Origin: Syntrophobacterales bacterium
GTDB taxonomy: Bacteria; Desulfobacterota; Syntrophia; Syntrophales; UBA2192
Direction of reading: 5' to 3'
Length of the DNA stretch: 64,000 bases
NCBI GenBank assembly: GCA_018053845.1
Contig: JAGPKU010000001.1
Location: 101,235 to 165,234, forward strand
In this document: piece after piece, positions 1-62,890 of the stretch
How the letters are laid out: the number at the start of each line of letters is the position of its first letter
Numbering within the stretch: the first letter of the stretch is position 1
Notes under the pieces: model-generated
Database searches by the model: none
Told to the model about the DNA's origin: nothing
What the model saw: the letters and a program-made list of their open reading frames with translations, nothing else
Made by a program: the position numbers and the translations under genes

Positions 1-1476
1 AAGATCCCCACCGACGGCGTCGTCCTGACGGGCGCATCGGCCGTGGACGAGTCCATGCTGACGGGCGAGAGCATGCCCGTGACGAAGGAACCCGGCAGCG
101 AGGTCTACGGGGCCACGATCAACCGCAGCGGCAGCTTCACCTTCCGGGCGACGAAGATCGGCGCCGATACGGCCCTGGCCCAAATCATCCGCCTCGTCGA
201 GGAGGCCCAGGGCTCCAAGGCGCCCATCCAGCGCATCGCCGACCGCGTGGCCGCCGTGTTCGTACCCTCCGTCATGGCGATTGCCGCCGTCACCTTCGTC
301 GTCTGGGCCTTTTTCGTCCCCGAGCCCCACGTCACGCGGGCCCTGCTCAACTTCGTCTCCGTGCTGATCATCGCCTGCCCCTGCGCCATGGGACTGGCGA
401 CGCCGACGGCCGTCATGGTGGGCACGGGGATGGGCGCCGAGAAGGGAATCCTCATCAAGGGGGGCGAGAGCCTCGAGAAGGCGCACAGGCTGACCCTGGT
501 CGTCTTCGACAAGACGGGCACCCTCACCGTGGGCGAACCCCGGGTGACCGATGTCGTGACGGCCCCCGGCATCACGCGAAGCCGCGTGCTCCGGATCGCC
601 GCCTCCGTGGAGGCCCTCTCGGAGCATCCCCTGGCCCGGGCCATCGTCGAGACGGCCCGGCGGGAAGGGATCCGTCCCGAGCCCGTCGAGGGGTTCGAGG
701 CCCTCTCGGGTCTCGGCGCGCGGGCCGCCTTGAACGGCGCAGCGCTTCTTCTCGGCAACCGGAGGCTGATCGAGCAGGTCTCCCCGGGTCTCAACGGCCT
801 TGCCGAGGCGGGCGAGCGGTTATCCTCGGAAGCGAAGACCTGCGTCTTCGCGGCCGAGGGGGGGCAGGTGCTGGGCATCGTGGCCCTTTCGGACGTCCCG
901 AAGGACACGGCCGCCGAAGCGGTGGAGGCATTGAAGGGCATGGGCCTCAAGGTGGCCATGATCACCGGCGACAACGAGAACACGGCCCGGGCCACGGGCA
1001 GGGCCCTCGGCATCGACCGGGTGATGGCGGAGGTCCTGCCCGGCGAGAAGGCCGAGGAGATCCGCCGCCTGAAGGAACGGGGCGAGACCGTGGCCATGGT
1101 GGGAGACGGGATCAACGACGCGCCGGCCCTCGCGGCCGCCGACATCGGGATCGCTGTCGGCGCGGGGACCGACGTGGCCATCGAGGCCTCCGACATCACG
1201 CTCATCCGCGACGACCTGCGAGCCGTGCCCGAGGCGATCCGGCTGTCCTTCCGGACGATGCGGACGATCCGGCAGAACCTGTTCTGGGCCTTCATCTACA
1301 ACGTCATCGGGATCCCCGTGGCCGCGGGGGTTCTTTATCCCTTCCTCGGGGTCCTTCTCAACCCCGTGTACGCCGCCGCCGCCATGGCGCTCAGCTCCGT
1401 GTCGGTCGTGACCAATTCGCTGAGATTACGGTGGTCCTGGCGGCTCACGCCGCAGGCAAATGCCCGAAAGCTGTGA
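1..1476 (+). CDS. copA: Heavy-metal (Cu/Ag-type) translocating P1B-type ATPase, C-terminal part (5' end outside window)
   Basis: Frame open from base 1 (KIPTDGVV...). TGES, CPC membrane metal site, DKTGTLT phosphorylation motif and GDGINDAPAL hinge. Stop TGA 1474-1476. Confidence 0.93.
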   Translation, partial: KIPTDGVVLTGASAVDESMLTGESMPVTKEPGSEVYGATINRSGSFTFRATKIGADTALAQIIRLVEEAQGSKAPIQRIADRVAAVFVPSVMAIAAVTFVVWAFFVPEPHVTRALLNFVSVLIIACPCAMGLATPTAVMVGTGMGAEKGILIKGGESLEKAHRLTLVVFDKTGTLTVGEPRVTDVVTAPGITRSRVLRIAASVEALSEHPLARAIVETARREGIRPEPVEGFEALSGLGARAALNGAALLLGNRRLIEQVSPGLNGLAEAGERLSSEAKTCVFAAEGGQVLGIVALSDVPKDTAAEAVEALKGMGLKVAMITGDNENTARATGRALGIDRVMAEVLPGEKAEEIRRLKERGETVAMVGDGINDAPALAAADIGIAVGAGTDVAIEASDITLIRDDLRAVPEAIRLSFRTMRTIRQNLFWAFIYNVIGIPVAAGVLYPFLGVLLNPVYAAAAMALSSVSVVTNSLRLRWSWRLTPQANARKL

Positions 1477-1576
1477 AGTCGGGAAGCTTTGAATCCCGGA
1501 CAAGCCGGCAGCCGTGCGCAAGTCGTCCGATACTCCGAACTTCCCAGCTTCCGAGCTTCCTGACTTCCGTCTTTTC
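1475..1576. repeat. Octad-phased GAAG/CTTCC imperfect hairpin (periodic-hairpin element R1)
   Basis: GAAG/GAAG/GAAT/GACA at 1475,1483,1491,1499 and CTTCC at 1540,1548,1556,1564 (strict 8-nt phase). 1475-1493 pairs with 1549-1567 (18 of 19, 2 G-U). Begins inside the copA stop codon and is followed by TCTTTTC. Confidence 0.7.
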
Positions 1577-3365: not shown

Positions 3366-3465
3366 AGGAAGTGAAGAAGCACTGCAATCAACAAGCTCGG
3401 AAAAGCGGAAGTGGTGCGATCGGCTCTCGGCGCCTCCAAGCTTCACCGCTTCCCAGCCTCTCCAT
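3366..3465. repeat. GAAG/CTTC-rich imperfect hairpin (periodic-hairpin element R2, weaker)
   Basis: Purine arm GGAAGTGAAGAAGC...GGAAAAGCGGAAGTGG, pyrimidine arm CCAAGCTTCACCGCTTCCCAGCCTCTCC. GGAA-AA-GCGG (3399-3408) pairs with CCGCTTCC (3447-3454). Shares CTTCCCAGC with R1. Confidence 0.45.
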
Positions 3466-7442: not shown

Positions 7443-7533
7443 GTGAGGAAGCGCGGAAGAGCAGAAGAGCGGAGTCGATTTCCATTCCCCCTGTCTCGAG
7501 CCGCTCTTCCTCACTTCCGATCTTCCGATCCTC
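7443..7533. repeat. Octad-phased GGAAG/CTTCC imperfect hairpin (periodic-hairpin element R3)
   Basis: GGAAG/GGAAG/AGAAG/GGAG at 7447,7455,7463,7471 and CTTCC at 7506,7514,7522 (8-nt phase). Perfect core GAAGAGCGG (7464-7472) / CCGCTCTTC (7501-7509), flanked by phased GGAAG:CTTCC helices. Confidence 0.7.
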
Positions 7534-10495: not shown

Positions 10496-12337
<1,842 letters not shown>

Positions 12338-12339
12338 TC

Positions 12340-12444
12340 AGAAGGCAAGAGGGTTTGAAGGCGAAAAGGGTGGAGAATCGGAGGCTGACAGGGGCTGCAG
12401 ACGTATTCAACGTTCTCACCCTCTCACCTTCTTGCCCTCTCCGG
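12340..12444. repeat. Dispersed octad-phased hairpin element, family GGnnnnAG/TCTCACC (copy R4; homologous to 30557-30651)
   Basis: Octads GGCAAGAG GGTTTGAA GGCGAAAA GGGTGGAG AATCGGAG from 12344 (8-nt phase). Right arm TTCTCACCCTCTCACCTTCT (12413-12432) is 19/20 identical to 30631-30650. Left arm is about 80% identical to 30557-30592. Arms pair (12368-77:12413-21, 12357-64:12424-31, 12348-53:12435-40). Confidence 0.8.
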
Positions 12445-12502
12445 TTCATGAAATGAACATCCGGACGGCAACCGGATCATATCGAAAGGTCGTTTCAGAT
12501 CT

Positions 12503-21388: not shown

Positions 21389-21580
21389 TCCCGACCCGTC
21401 CCCTCCCCGCCGTGTCCCCCCTCGCCCGCCCCGTCTCCGGACATTCGGGAGCCGATTTCCTTTCGGTCCACCGTCTGCCCGTTGCTTTTTGACGCGGAAT
21501 CGTTTATAAAAGAGAAAAATATAACCGGTTTCGGGGTTCGGGGGCCTTGCCGCTCCCGGAGGGAAATCCGGATGGTCGGG

Positions 21581-21617
21581 CCGCCATTCGATCGAGCGAT
21601 CGGATGGCGGTTTTTTT
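21581..21617 (+). terminator. Rho-independent terminator-type hairpin 190 nt downstream of epmA
   Basis: CCGCCATTCGATCG (21581-21594) / CGATCGGATGGCGG (21597-21610), one G-U, followed by TTTTTTT (21611-21617). Confidence 0.75.
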
Positions 21618-30556: not shown

Positions 30557-30651
30557 AGAAGATAAGAGGGTAAGAGGGCGAGAAGGTGGGAGGACGAAAG
30601 ACGTGCGGCAGGCGGGCAGCCTATCCACGTTTCTCACCGTCTCACCTTCTG
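30557..30651. repeat. Dispersed octad-phased hairpin element, family GGnnnnAG/TCTCACC (copy R8; homologous to 12340-12444)
   Basis: Octads GATAAGAG GGTAAGAG GGCGAGAA GGTGGGAG GACGAAAG from 30561. ACGTG(30601-05):CACGT(30626-30) and 30581-30591:30640-30650 pair. TTCTCACCGTCTCACCTTCT (30631-30650) is 19/20 identical to 12413-12432. Confidence 0.8.
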
Positions 30652-30658
30652 AATTTGT

Positions 30659-30919
30659 CTAGTCGGGGATGACCTTGAAGACCTCATCCCCCGGCCGACA
30701 CCGGTCCGACACCTTGACGCCGATGTAGTCGCCCACCACGGCCTTTTCGACCTTCGCGTTGTTGACTTCCATGGACTCGACGACGTTCTCGAAATTCGTC
30801 GTGTGGCCGACGTACTTGAGCGTGTCCCCCACCTTCACCTCGCCGGCCGTGACCTTGATCGCGGCGACGCTGGGCTTTGCGAAGAATTTCACGATCTCGC
30901 CGACTTTCTCCTCCGCCAT
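30659..30919 (-). CDS. Small translation-factor domain-II-like beta-barrel protein (86 aa), function unknown
   Basis: MAEEKVGEIVKFFAKPSVAAIKVTAGEVKVGDTLKYVGHTTNFENVVESMEVNNAKVEKA..GD.IGVKV resembles stand-alone EF-Tu domain-2-like proteins. SD AAGGAGG. Confidence 0.75.
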   Translation of the reverse strand: MAEEKVGEIVKFFAKPSVAAIKVTAGEVKVGDTLKYVGHTTNFENVVESMEVNNAKVEKAVVGDYIGVKVSDRCRPGDEVFKVIPD

Positions 30920-31061
30920 GGTTCTTTCCTCCTTTCTTCCCGATGCGTGAAGACGGCCGTACCCCCCGCGGCAGCCTCGTCCGGCCCGGCGGGGCGCCCC
31001 GGCCTCGGTTGAATGAGGCCTTTTATAACGTTTCGCGGAGAAAATCAAGGGGCCCCGCGCC

Positions 31062-31094
31062 AAAGAAAAAGGGCAGGGACCCCGGTCCCTGCCC
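31062..31094 (-). terminator. Rho-independent terminator ending the ribosomal supercluster (after rplQ)
   Basis: Minus strand GGGCAGGGAC-CGGG-GTCCCTGCCC followed by TTTTTCTTT. Confidence 0.9.
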
Positions 31095-61947: not shown

Positions 61948-62024
61948 TGGCAGGCCAGGAGGGATTCGAACCCCCAGCATCCGGATTTGGAGTCCGGCGC
62001 TCTAGCCGTTAGAGCTACTGGCCT
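61948..62024 (-). tRNA. tRNA-Trp (anticodon CCA), CCA end encoded
   Basis: Minus strand AGGCCAGTAGCTCTAACGGCTAGAGCGCCGGACTCCAAATCCGGATGCTGGGGGTTCGAATCCCTCCTGGCCTGCCA. The cloverleaf folds by eye (anticodon arm CCGGA-CTCCAAA-TCCGG, T-arm GGGGG-TTCGAAT-CCCTC). Confidence 0.93.
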
Positions 62025-62045
62025 GTACCCCGTTCCTTCCCGCCG

Positions 62046-62195
62046 TTACTTGGTTTCCTTGTGCGGCGTGTGGGTCTTGCAGAACCTGCAGAACTTCTTC
62101 ATCTCGAGCCGGTCCTGCATGGTCCGCTTGTTCTTCGTCGTCGTGTAGTTGCGGCGCTTGCATTCCGTGCAGGCCAGCGTAATGTTGTTTCGCAT
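62046..62195 (-). CDS. rpmG: 50S ribosomal protein L33 (bL33, Cys4 zinc form)
   Basis: [49 protein letters not shown]. Begins 21 nt after the 3' end of tRNA-Thr(GGU). Confidence 0.95.
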
Positions 62196-62216
62196 CGATG
62201 TCCACCCTGGCTGAAA

Positions 62217-62292
62217 TGGAGCCCACGACCAGGATTGAACTGGTGACCTCATCCTTACCAAGGATGTGCTCTACCGACTGAGCTACGTGGGC
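62217..62292 (-). tRNA. tRNA-Thr (anticodon GGT), CCA encoded
   Basis: GCCCACGTAGCTCAGTCGGTAGAGCACATCCTTGGTAAGGATGAGGTCACCAGTTCAATCCTGGTCGTGGGCTCCA. Anticodon loop TTGGTAA. Confidence 0.93.
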
Positions 62293-62364
62293 TGAAAACC
62301 GGCAACCCGGCATCCGGCGCCGGCCGATCGCCTCGGCCGCCCCGGTCCGTTCTCCTGGAAAAGT

Positions 62365-62440
62365 TGGAGCGGGAAACGGGATTCGAACCCGCGACCCTCA
62401 GCTTGGAAGGCTGACGCTCTAGCCACTGAGCTACTCCCGC
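62365..62440 (-). tRNA. tRNA-Gly (anticodon TCC), CCA encoded
   Basis: GCGGGAGTAGCTCAGTGGCTAGAGCGTCAGCCTTCCAAGCTGAGGGTCGCGGGTTCGAATCCCGTTTCCCGCTCCA. Anticodon loop CTTCCAA. Confidence 0.93.
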
Positions 62441-62501
62441 TCACCCCCGCCCGGGGCTCACTCACGGTCCTCCTTCGGGGCGCGGTGAATGAGAAAAAAT
62501 A

Positions 62502-62586
62502 TGGTGGAGGGGGGAGGGTTCGAACCTCCGTAGGCTGCGCCGGCAGATTTACAGTCTGCTCCCTTTGACCGCTCGGGAACCCCTCC
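62502..62586 (-). tRNA. tRNA-Tyr (anticodon GTA), long variable arm, CCA encoded
   Basis: GGAGGGGTTCCCGAGCGGTCAAAGGGAGCAGACTGTAAATCTGCCGGCGCAGCCTACGGAGGTTCGAACCCTCCCCCCTCCACCA. Confidence 0.93.
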
Positions 62587-62612
62587 GGATCTCGTGATCG
62601 CTATGGGCGATA

Positions 62613-62688
62613 TGGAGCTGGCGATGGGACTCGAACCCGCAACCGGCTGATTACAAATCAGCTGCTCTACCTGTTGAGCTACGCCAGC
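62613..62688 (-). tRNA. tRNA-Thr (anticodon TGT), CCA encoded
   Basis: GCTGGCGTAGCTCAACAGGTAGAGCAGCTGATTTGTAATCAGCCGGTTGCGGGTTCGAGTCCCATCGCCAGCTCCA. Anticodon loop TTTGTAA. Confidence 0.93.
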
Positions 62689-62806: not shown

Positions 62807-62890
62807 GGGCTTGAGGCAAAAAGCGAAGGGCTGAAGCAAAAGACGTTCAAATCCATCCTTTTCCCCCTTGGCCCCGCGCCCTTTGCCTAT
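62807..62890. repeat. Heptad-phased GGC/GCC hairpin (element R11; same family as the rpoB-rpoC spacer modules)
   Basis: GGC/AGC at 62808,62815,62822,62829 and GCC at 62871,62878,62885. 62815-62842 is about 70% complementary to 62859-62888. Exact matches to the rpoBC spacer: GCGAAGGGCT (62823-32 = 54330-39) and the 17-mer 62878-62894 = 54486-54502. Confidence 0.75.

Follow-up and report, generated by a model that had tools for sequence, protein, structure and literature searches.

The question that this locus raises is what kind of element the long hairpin may be that lies between the typA and ychF genes in a Syntrophales metagenome-assembled genome (MAG), found in anaerobic digesters. The whole 64-kb stretch of DNA that was analyzed is called the window here. 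A reading made from its letters only (the sequence-only reading) had proposed that the hairpin recurs once within the window and that it belongs to a dispersed repeat family, not just to a local terminator. Our analysis upholds the family and ties it to a gene: it shares its arms with longer cassettes that carry a PF05635 gene. Its copies lie, oriented either way, between cistrons or at the 3' ends of genes. Because these longer relatives with the same octamer arms enclose the gene, we think that, on balance, the window hairpins are gene-less miniatures of a selfish stem-loop family of Syntrophales, akin to the intervening sequences (IVSs) of rRNA.

Copy 1 (12340-12444, plus strand) has TypA and YchF as neighbors and begins 2 nt 3' of the typA stop codon (TGA, 12335-12337). 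Its 5' purine arm (12340-12374) is formed by units in 8-nt phase, AGAAGGCA AGAGGGTT TGAAGGCG AAAAGGGT GGA; a loop of about 31 nt follows (12375-12405), and then the 3' pyrimidine arm (12406-12440), TTCAACGTTCTCACCCTCTCACCTTCTTGCCCTCT, which reads as a TTCAAC box followed by TTCTCACC CTCTCACC TTCTTGCC CTCT. The place next to the stop codon, the 8-nt purine units and the pyrimidine arm had been described properly in the sequence-only reading; the length of the loop, given there as 35 nt, had not. The loop is little conserved between copies, and that of copy 1 matches the family loop consensus weakly. In six contigs of the same species, copy 1 is identical.

Copy 2 (30557-30651) has its best alignment in the plus orientation, antisense to the operon in which it lies, and is flanked by the stop codon of a small open reading frame (ORF) at 30659-31063(-), the last gene after rplQ (L17), and by a canonical intrinsic terminator at 30539-30508(-). 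The 20-mer TTCTCACCNTCTCACCTTCT is common to both copies at 19 of 20 positions, as had been noticed for their right arms. Its matches in the window are copies 1 and 2 and, with three mismatches, copy 2's own left arm, versus a chance expectation of 0.02. The two copies align with a score of 81 in plus/plus and 62 in plus/minus orientation. Both form imperfect hairpins about 100 nt long, in which a loop of some 30 nt separates a 5' purine arm, built from 8-nt units, from the pyrimidine arm that is complementary to it. The proposed folding is borne out on both strands of both copies (-37 to -44 kcal/mol; -42.4 kcal/mol for copy 1), with z-scores for the two strands of -2.1 and -3.9 (copy 1) and of -3.6 and -4.4 (copy 2).

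A covariance model (R1) was built from ten homologues with the stem paired in full register, which was used in place of the RNAalifold register that missed one octamer, and was run on the window without filters. It gave 95.5 bits (E 6.5e-25) for copy 1 and 76.1 bits (E 2.2e-19) for copy 2, and altogether at least five copies, possibly six; the two copies noticed at first are both real, but at least three more are present. Copy 3 (1464-1569, minus strand; 48.2 bits, E 1.8e-11; -51.4 kcal/mol, z -3.8) belongs to a diverged subfamily with arms of GGAAGNNN octamers (GGAAGTCA GGAAGCTC GGAAGCTG GGAAGTTC GGAG) and a loop similar to the family loop consensus; it lies between convergent genes and overlaps the stop codon of the ORF at 43-1476(+). 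Copy 4 (7445-7527, minus strand; 24.7 bits, E 9e-5; -41.7 kcal/mol, z -2.7) is shorter, being formed by GGAAGATC GGAAGTGA GGAAGAGC and their complement in the spacer between cupin and GDPD genes. Copy 5 (3366-3463, plus strand; 24.1 bits, E 1.4e-4), between SRAP and CoA_binding_2 genes, is decayed: one arm is still octad-phased, on the minus strand, and the hairpin is no better than shuffles (z -0.1). The octamers of these additional copies differ from those of copies 1 and 2, the architecture is the same, and all the window copies are in spacers at gene 3' ends. Octad arrays (at least four of five units GAAG, GAGG or GGAG at exact 8-nt spacing) occur four times in the window versus 0.05 times in dinucleotide-preserving shuffles, and include those at copies 3, 4 and 5, the last one on the minus strand.

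Strong hairpins that all lie downstream of a stop codon might also be local RNA signals that arose by convergence, such as factor-independent or bidirectional terminators or 3'-end stabilizing hairpins, with no mobile family behind them, and CTCTCTTTTTC / CTCTCTTTCTC comes directly after the hairpin at two related loci (L126 and L127). However, a terminator scan of the plus strand finds no intrinsic terminator and no U-tract at copy 1, separate canonical terminators adjoin copies 2 and 3, and stems of about 31 pairs with loops of about 30 nt are unlike intrinsic terminators, which have a short G+C-rich stem, a 3-8-nt loop and a U-tract. Moreover, the typA-ychF position is kept in relatives, and homology over the whole length, including the loop consensus, ties copies at unrelated loci and in different genera; it therefore speaks for descent and not for convergence. 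In our opinion, the explanation by local signals is very unlikely.

The element family is dispersed, multi-copy and lineage-restricted (Syntrophales). Several Syntrophaceae/Syntrophales MAGs have full-length homologues, with both arms, loop and TCCAAC box; a search restricted to exact matches already gives 2-3 of them per genome. The family pattern TCCAACNTTCTCACCNTCTCACC (23 nt, with 21 specified bases and two N) is present in 116 metagenome stretches with about 80 unique sequences, and R1 detects 79 distinct elements in 100 of the 116, up to three of them per 6-14 kb. With the window copies, the Syntrophales homologues and these stretches, the family proposed by the sequence-only reading goes well beyond two copies and is conserved elsewhere. 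Pairwise Smith-Waterman alignment and the covariance model were needed for detecting homologues; blastn-short of the two copies against all the fetched loci gave only self matches of 45 nt or more. In Rfam, the element has no match at gathering score, and at permissive thresholds just sub-threshold noise of miRNA-type hairpins (E up to 10).

A scan of species-representative genomes with the 20-mer gave at least 118 stretches versus about 4 expected by our own rough estimate; the matches listed are spread over many phyla, and most of them are tandem arrays of TTCTCACC. Such arrays (loci L007-L124), which often adjoin arrays of other 7-8-nt units, were observed in Bacteroidota, Acidobacteriota, Planctomycetota, Verrucomicrobiota, Cyanobacteria, Ignavibacteria, Gemmatimonadota and Nitrospirota; there are several per genome, and several lie at contig ends.

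The link to a protein came from clustering the ORFs of the element-bearing loci, which gave a recurrent ORF of 117-127 aa next to arrays. It belongs to Pfam PF05635, the 23S rRNA-intervening-sequence protein (E 1e-29 to 1e-38), with a weak match to bAvd; the family is also known as four-helix-bundle protein or S23p protein and is Avd-like. In the longer elements, arms with the TCCAAC box bracket a PF05635 gene of 127 aa. At three loci (L160, L167 and L245), GAAGGTGAGAGGGTAAGAGGGTGAGAAGGTGAGAA precedes the PF05635 ORF and TTTCCAACCTTCTCACCCTCTCACCTTCTCAC follows it, and at L160 and L167 GGGAAGGTGAGAGGGTAAGAGGGTGAGAAGGTGAGAAA stands before the ORF and ATTTCCAACCTTCTCACCCTCTCACCTTC after it; in all of them, the arms are those of the window family. 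One 209-kb contig carries both the full-length L160 and a locus with three miniatures (L173). In the ORF-bearing relatives, the purine array extends to the PF05635 start codon.

In the fetched loci, 12 of 13 PF05635 ORFs have an upstream tandem array of 7-8-nt units that is mirrored by a downstream reverse complement, a sample that is biased, since these loci were picked by a pattern from the element itself. The array units differ between PF05635 elements (GGTGAGA, GGATGGTT, AATAATCG, CAGTCCN, GGTGAAC, GGAGGTT). Homologues of the L160 protein at 70-75% identity are present in Syntrophales, Nitrospirae, Spirochaetales, Bacteroidetes and Anaerolineae. When loci were chosen by protein similarity alone, in all five a purine octamer array extended to the start codon, a pyrimidine array came after the stop codon, and the gene lay inside an operon, in sense orientation between two co-directional genes. 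In complete plasmids of isolates, inverted arrays bracket four of five PF05635 genes; those of Nostoc punctiforme PCC 73102, Nostoc TCL26-01 and Leptolyngbya BL0902 have G-rich units. The exception, on plasmid pOSC7112.02 of Oscillatoria nigro-viridis PCC 7112 (L256, 8641-9785), has G-rich arrays of 8-9-nt units that share one polarity on the two sides of the PF05635 gene, and no inverted counterpart lies within 200 nt. On plasmid AZO_p2 of Azospirillum lipoferum 4B, the gene is inside the large-subunit rRNA as a classical 23S rRNA IVS, whose stem is made of heptamers (AGAGGAC GGATGAC AGAGGAC GGAGGAC) and their complement. In total, inverted tandem arrays of 7-9-nt units bracket 21 of 23 PF05635 ORFs, across phyla.

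The PF05635 family is very large: of 8,000 candidates scored, 7,996 reach E <= 1e-10. One subfamily (P0121-P0240) is 70-75% identical over at least five phyla, with single exact sequences on up to 74 contigs, many of which are shorter than 2 kb. These findings suggest recent horizontal spread together with assembly breaks at the repeat arms.

The architecture of the full-length PF05635 cassettes is equal to that of the classical 23S rRNA IVSs. As in the rRNA IVSs with an S23p/PF05635 ORF (Leptospira, Coxiella burnetii, Azospirillum lipoferum), terminal inverted repeats form a long stem (about 28-36 bp) and the gene fills the loop of the full-length relatives; in Azospirillum, the stem is also made of tandem repeats, there heptamers. 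In contrast to these IVSs, the window copies have no ORF, their loops are of about 30 nt, and they are in mRNA spacers, the window having no rRNA, whereas the rRNA IVSs are in helix 25 or 45 of 23S rRNA. They also occur in tens of copies per genome. Excision by RNase III is established for the rRNA IVSs only. In Salmonella, Yersinia and Campylobacter, there are also rRNA IVSs of about 100 nt that have no ORF and form a simple extended stem-loop, which is removed by RNase III. These have the same size and stem-loop form as the window copies, and likewise no coding capacity, but they are confined to rRNA and not dispersed intergenically, and we know of no octamer-repeat arms reported for them. 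The rRNA IVSs are considered to be selfish elements with a sporadic distribution and horizontal transfer (PMC4990558).

The turnover of the element can be followed at the typA-ychF site. In a relative with a YchF of 97% identity (L125), the element is present with one right-arm octamer deleted, and it still folds despite the loss of this unit. At 90% YchF identity it is present and followed by CTCTCTTTTTC, at 87% (L127) nothing but an outer stem of 15 bp and a CGG loop is left, and at 80% the element is absent and the spacer is 29 nt long. Between the window (12340-12502) and L125 (2847-3000), the element is 75% identical and the rest of the spacer 63%, versus 96-97% at third codon positions of the flanking genes; therefore, the spacer changes far faster than silent sites, at about ten times their rate. 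Conversion between copies and hairpin-driven mutation are possibilities for this fast change. Within short evolutionary times, the element is thus acquired, shortened and lost. A separate small hairpin (12459-12477, ATCCGGACGGCAACCGGAT), between copy 1 and the ychF ribosome-binding site, is retained with changes in orthologous spacers, including that of L127, in which the element is mostly lost.

A copy is made of two inverted arrays of about 4-5 octamers, rich in purines on the 5' side whichever strand is read, around a short and variable center. The family consensus stem has about 31 pairs with small internal loops. Among the 59 unique copies, 83% of the pairs are Watson-Crick, 6.7% G.T, 5.6% A.C and 4.7% other; changes on both sides of a pair are almost nil, the arms are conserved as sequence and neither strand is preferred. 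Since the arms are nearly invariant, the essential absence of compensatory change is neither for nor against the stem, and together with the lack of strand preference it is as expected of young copies of a mobile sequence. Of the 26 non-redundant copies in classifiable spacers, by gene calls that are crude (ORF length plus G+C content at third codon positions), 20 are in co-directional, four in convergent and two in divergent spacers. Copies are mostly within tens of nt of a stop codon, which they sometimes overlap, and nine are sense and 11 antisense relative to transcription.

Part of this pattern could also be read in terms of double-stranded DNA sites for an oligomerizing protein, with one dimer per 8-bp unit (in the manner of MetJ on met boxes, or of ParG on tetramer boxes with 4-bp spacers), or for nucleoid proteins of the IHF/HU type, the hairpin being a by-product of the inverted orientation of two arrays. 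Conservation of the arms as sequence and not through compensatory change, the similar frequencies of G.T and A.C, the lack of orientation bias relative to transcription, and a periodicity that is retained in subfamilies with differing units all agree with such sites. Besides, Geobacter metallireducens has the same architecture at 24 + 21 + 8 places: its classes 1-3 are paired tandem octa- or heptanucleotide sites, with 8 to 24 pairs per genome, for which IHF/HU-type binding was proposed by Aklujkar et al. 2009 (PMC2700814). Like the family described here, these are opposite-strand arrays of 3-5 tandem units of 7-8 nt at variable distance, in many copies and in a member of Desulfobacterota. It is the architecture alone that matches, and not the units themselves: GTTGCTYN, TCTCCGTS and MTYCTGA, read there as DNA sites of IHF/HU or of a global regulator, are unlike the units of the window element. 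No link to PF05635 is reported in that paper (PMC2700814). However, our copies decay, shrink and vanish among close relatives, which regulator sites do not, and they are at gene 3' ends or between cistrons rather than at promoters, as the two divergent spacers out of 26 illustrate. Copies are also found in-frame in a nonribosomal peptide synthetase (NRPS) gene and in 23S rRNA, where an RNA stem is the known functional form (PMC4990558), and among the clustered neighbor ORFs there is no co-occurring candidate binder except PF05635. We think, consequently, that protein-binding DNA sites are an unlikely explanation.

The dispersal of the copies calls for a comparison with the known mobile hairpins. 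Doublets of repetitive extragenic palindromes (REP/REPIN), mobilized in trans by the REP-associated tyrosine transposase (RAYT, IS200/IS605-like Y1), are similarly short (about 100 nt), extragenic, multi-copy and lineage-specific hairpins, with two conserved inverted arms and a less conserved, variable center; REP/REPIN elements can also stabilize upstream mRNA. However, the arms of the window element are tandem octamers of purines only (or of pyrimidines only) that cannot self-pair, not palindromic REPs, and have no GTAG-type head. Moreover, when 775 neighboring ORFs from the element-bearing loci (about 0.9 Mb) were clustered all against all, no transposase-like or RAYT protein recurred among them, a result with which a single distant RAYT is still compatible. 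REPIN doublets are, in our view, extremely improbable here. A miniature inverted-repeat transposable element was rejected as well: the flanks of the 59 unique copies have no variable direct duplication that would mark a target site, and the one longer element that shares the arms codes for PF05635 rather than for a transposase.

Other families of palindromic repeats of about 100-150 nt, such as the Correia/NEMIS elements of Neisseria, the enterobacterial repetitive intergenic consensus (ERIC) and the Rickettsia palindromic elements, are also co-transcribed with their neighbors, and Correia/NEMIS hairpins are cut by RNase III. As with the Rickettsia elements, related copies are found in-frame in a protein-coding gene. 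Unlike all of these families, ours has tandem-octamer arms and a candidate parent that carries a four-helix-bundle protein, and neither transposase partner nor target duplication was found.

The in-frame copies deserve some description. Octamer-armed hairpins lie within an NRPS reading frame at about 2380-2500 and about 5650-5800 of L122 and at 4503-4619 of L043; this frame is open over the entire 8-kb locus (2666 codons). The hairpins have the RIDYMLKDSG motif on one side and the YIIYTSGSTGKPKG core of adenylation domains on the other, and are translated as NDKEGEKVRRWEGEK and SSYPLTFLPSYLL, the in-frame TGA of GGTGAGAA being replaced by TGG. A likeness to the Rickettsia palindromic elements can be seen in this placement.

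About 20 of the 59 unique copies share extended flanks, with TTCAAAAATGCCNGGATGCAAGGCCCCC and GAAAAGG on the left and ATCCCCGCGGGATGCGCCCCCGGTCAACAGCC on the right; they include L135, L213, L129, L036, L100, L108, L137, L205 and L216. A similar GGATGC..GCCCCC box is present on both sides in direct orientation. From the sequences, these flanks may mark a target that is preferred, or they may be part of a longer version of the element.

The resemblance of the purine units to Shine-Dalgarno (SD) sequences and of the pyrimidine arm to anti-SD, pointed out in the sequence-only reading, is real at the level of sequence when compared with the 3' end of 16S rRNA (AAGAAGGUGA versus AAGGAGGUGA, CACCUUCUU versus CACCUCCUU). 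The hairpins might then be RNAs related to translation, whose arms titrate ribosomes or mask and unmask neighboring ribosome-binding sites; in addition, copies 1 and 2 both follow translation genes (typA and the rplQ operon), and the purine array abuts the PF05635 start codon in the full-length relatives. However, other copies follow transporter, lipopolysaccharide, two-component and NRPS genes, the orientation is random and the SD-like arm is paired in the predicted structure. Since the units GGATGGTT, AATAATCG and GCAGGGGA of related elements are not SD-like, SD mimicry is not a defining property of the family, and we regard a role in translation as highly improbable.

If the window hairpins are IVS-like miniatures, a possible course of events can be outlined. 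Upon transcription of the host operon, either strand would fold into the stem of about 31 pairs with small internal loops, and the transcribed stem is probably a target of RNase III, by analogy with the IVSs of rRNA. In Coxiella, Leptospira and Salmonella, RNase III is known to excise such IVS stems (PMC4990558). A cut at the window element would separate the flanking cistrons of the transcript, or would leave a stem that protects the upstream 3' end. The tandem-repeat arms could pair in several registers, so that slippage by 8 nt would keep the stem. In the full-length elements, the SD-like purine arm at the start codon might be masked by the anti-SD-like arm until the stem opens. Single miniature copies are probably near-neutral passengers.

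Several points weigh against the interpretation as miniatures of an IVS-like family. The 64-kb window has no PF05635 ORF, and only the shared arms suggest that the miniatures derive from full-length elements. The short loops have no clear ORF remnant, the remnants of ORF ends being too weak to claim, and the reverse history, in which the ORF was inserted into pre-existing hairpins, is possible. No pair of empty and filled sites with clean boundaries, no transposase and no target-site duplication were found, and because of this it is the distribution of the copies that suggests mobility. The internal mismatches could block the cleavage by RNase III, which is itself deduced by analogy. The crude gene calls behind the context counts count against it too, as does the bias of the first PF05635 sample, which is offset in part by the later ones, namely the loci chosen by protein similarity and the isolate plasmids.

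A more general proposal can be put forward only tentatively, as we hold it to be somewhat less than an even chance: PF05635 genes within inverted arrays of 7-9-nt units would constitute one widespread class of mobile cassette over many phyla, with the classical 23S IVSs as its rRNA-resident members, which spawns tens to hundreds of ORF-less hairpins and may explain many of the short tandem arrays that have no explanation so far, such as the heptamers of cyanobacteria similar to short tandemly repeated repetitive (STRR) sequences and the octamer pairs of Geobacter. The STRR heptamer arrays and TAACTGA direct repeats are intergenic, have 7-nt units and a patchy distribution across phyla (Cyanobacteria, Bacteroidetes and others), and their function is unexplained (MacGregor 2015, PMC4679880). 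The PF05635 genes of Nostoc and Leptolyngbya are flanked by such G-rich arrays; however, the published description of the STRR arrays is that of direct arrays ahead of start codons, and not of inverted pairs that enclose a gene or form a hairpin (PMC4679880). The PF05635 family has no known function, and the crystal structure of S23p has been solved as a homopentamer (Coxiella paper, PMC4990558). In its strongest form, the proposal is that the homopentameric protein may recognize the repeat units, about five per arm, and mediate spread or RNA processing.

Other identities were considered from their commonly known features and set aside. Integron attC sites would require R and L core sites, which the element lacks, and CRISPR would require a regularity of spacers and repeats that it does not have. 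The polar octamers of FtsK and SpoIIIE (KOPS, GGGNAGGG, and SRS, GAGAAGGG), converging on the loop, are a resemblance only and fit poorly with the in-frame and rRNA copies; a CsrA or Hfq sponge is disfavored by the pairing of the motifs in the element.

Some further features of the window are given for completeness. A possible distant sixth member (62812-62889, minus strand; 16.2 bits, E 0.024; -39.2 kcal/mol, z -3.3) is a hairpin of a purine and a pyrimidine arm with GG at 8-nt spacing, whose membership in the family is uncertain; it adjoins a cluster of five tRNA genes (61951-62688, minus strand) upstream of the ribosomal protein/rpoBC region. The ORF at 30659-31063(-), of 134 aa and at the end of the ribosomal protein cluster, has sub-threshold matches to domain 2 of EF-Tu and EF-G. 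At 21534-21590(+), there is an Rfam match to the nhaA-I riboswitch (49.9 bits versus a gathering score of 37).

Both the IVS elements and the IVS ORF are already known. A full-text literature search for the octamer array sequence gave no match. In searches that covered few subscription journals, we found no account of ORF-less octamer-armed relatives in mRNA spacers of Syntrophales, none of PF05635 genes being generally bracketed by inverted short tandem arrays, and none that tied PF05635 elements to the unexplained tandem arrays of several phyla.

Dispersed hairpin repeats are common and usually orphan, whereas the shared arms tie the present family to a protein-coding partner, PF05635. If this link is true, the rRNA IVSs, the "four helix bundle protein" genes wedged into operons and the 7-8-nt tandem arrays would be one kind of element, and the unexplained arrays concerned are those of Cyanobacteria, Bacteroidota, Acidobacteriota and Desulfobacterota. 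Several contig ends among the fetched MAG loci carry elements, so the elements may break short-read assemblies. They probably also cut or stabilize polycistronic mRNAs. In our opinion, the link to PF05635 would also open routes to the function of this protein, be it in binding of the arrays, in RNase III-dependent release or translation, or in mobility.

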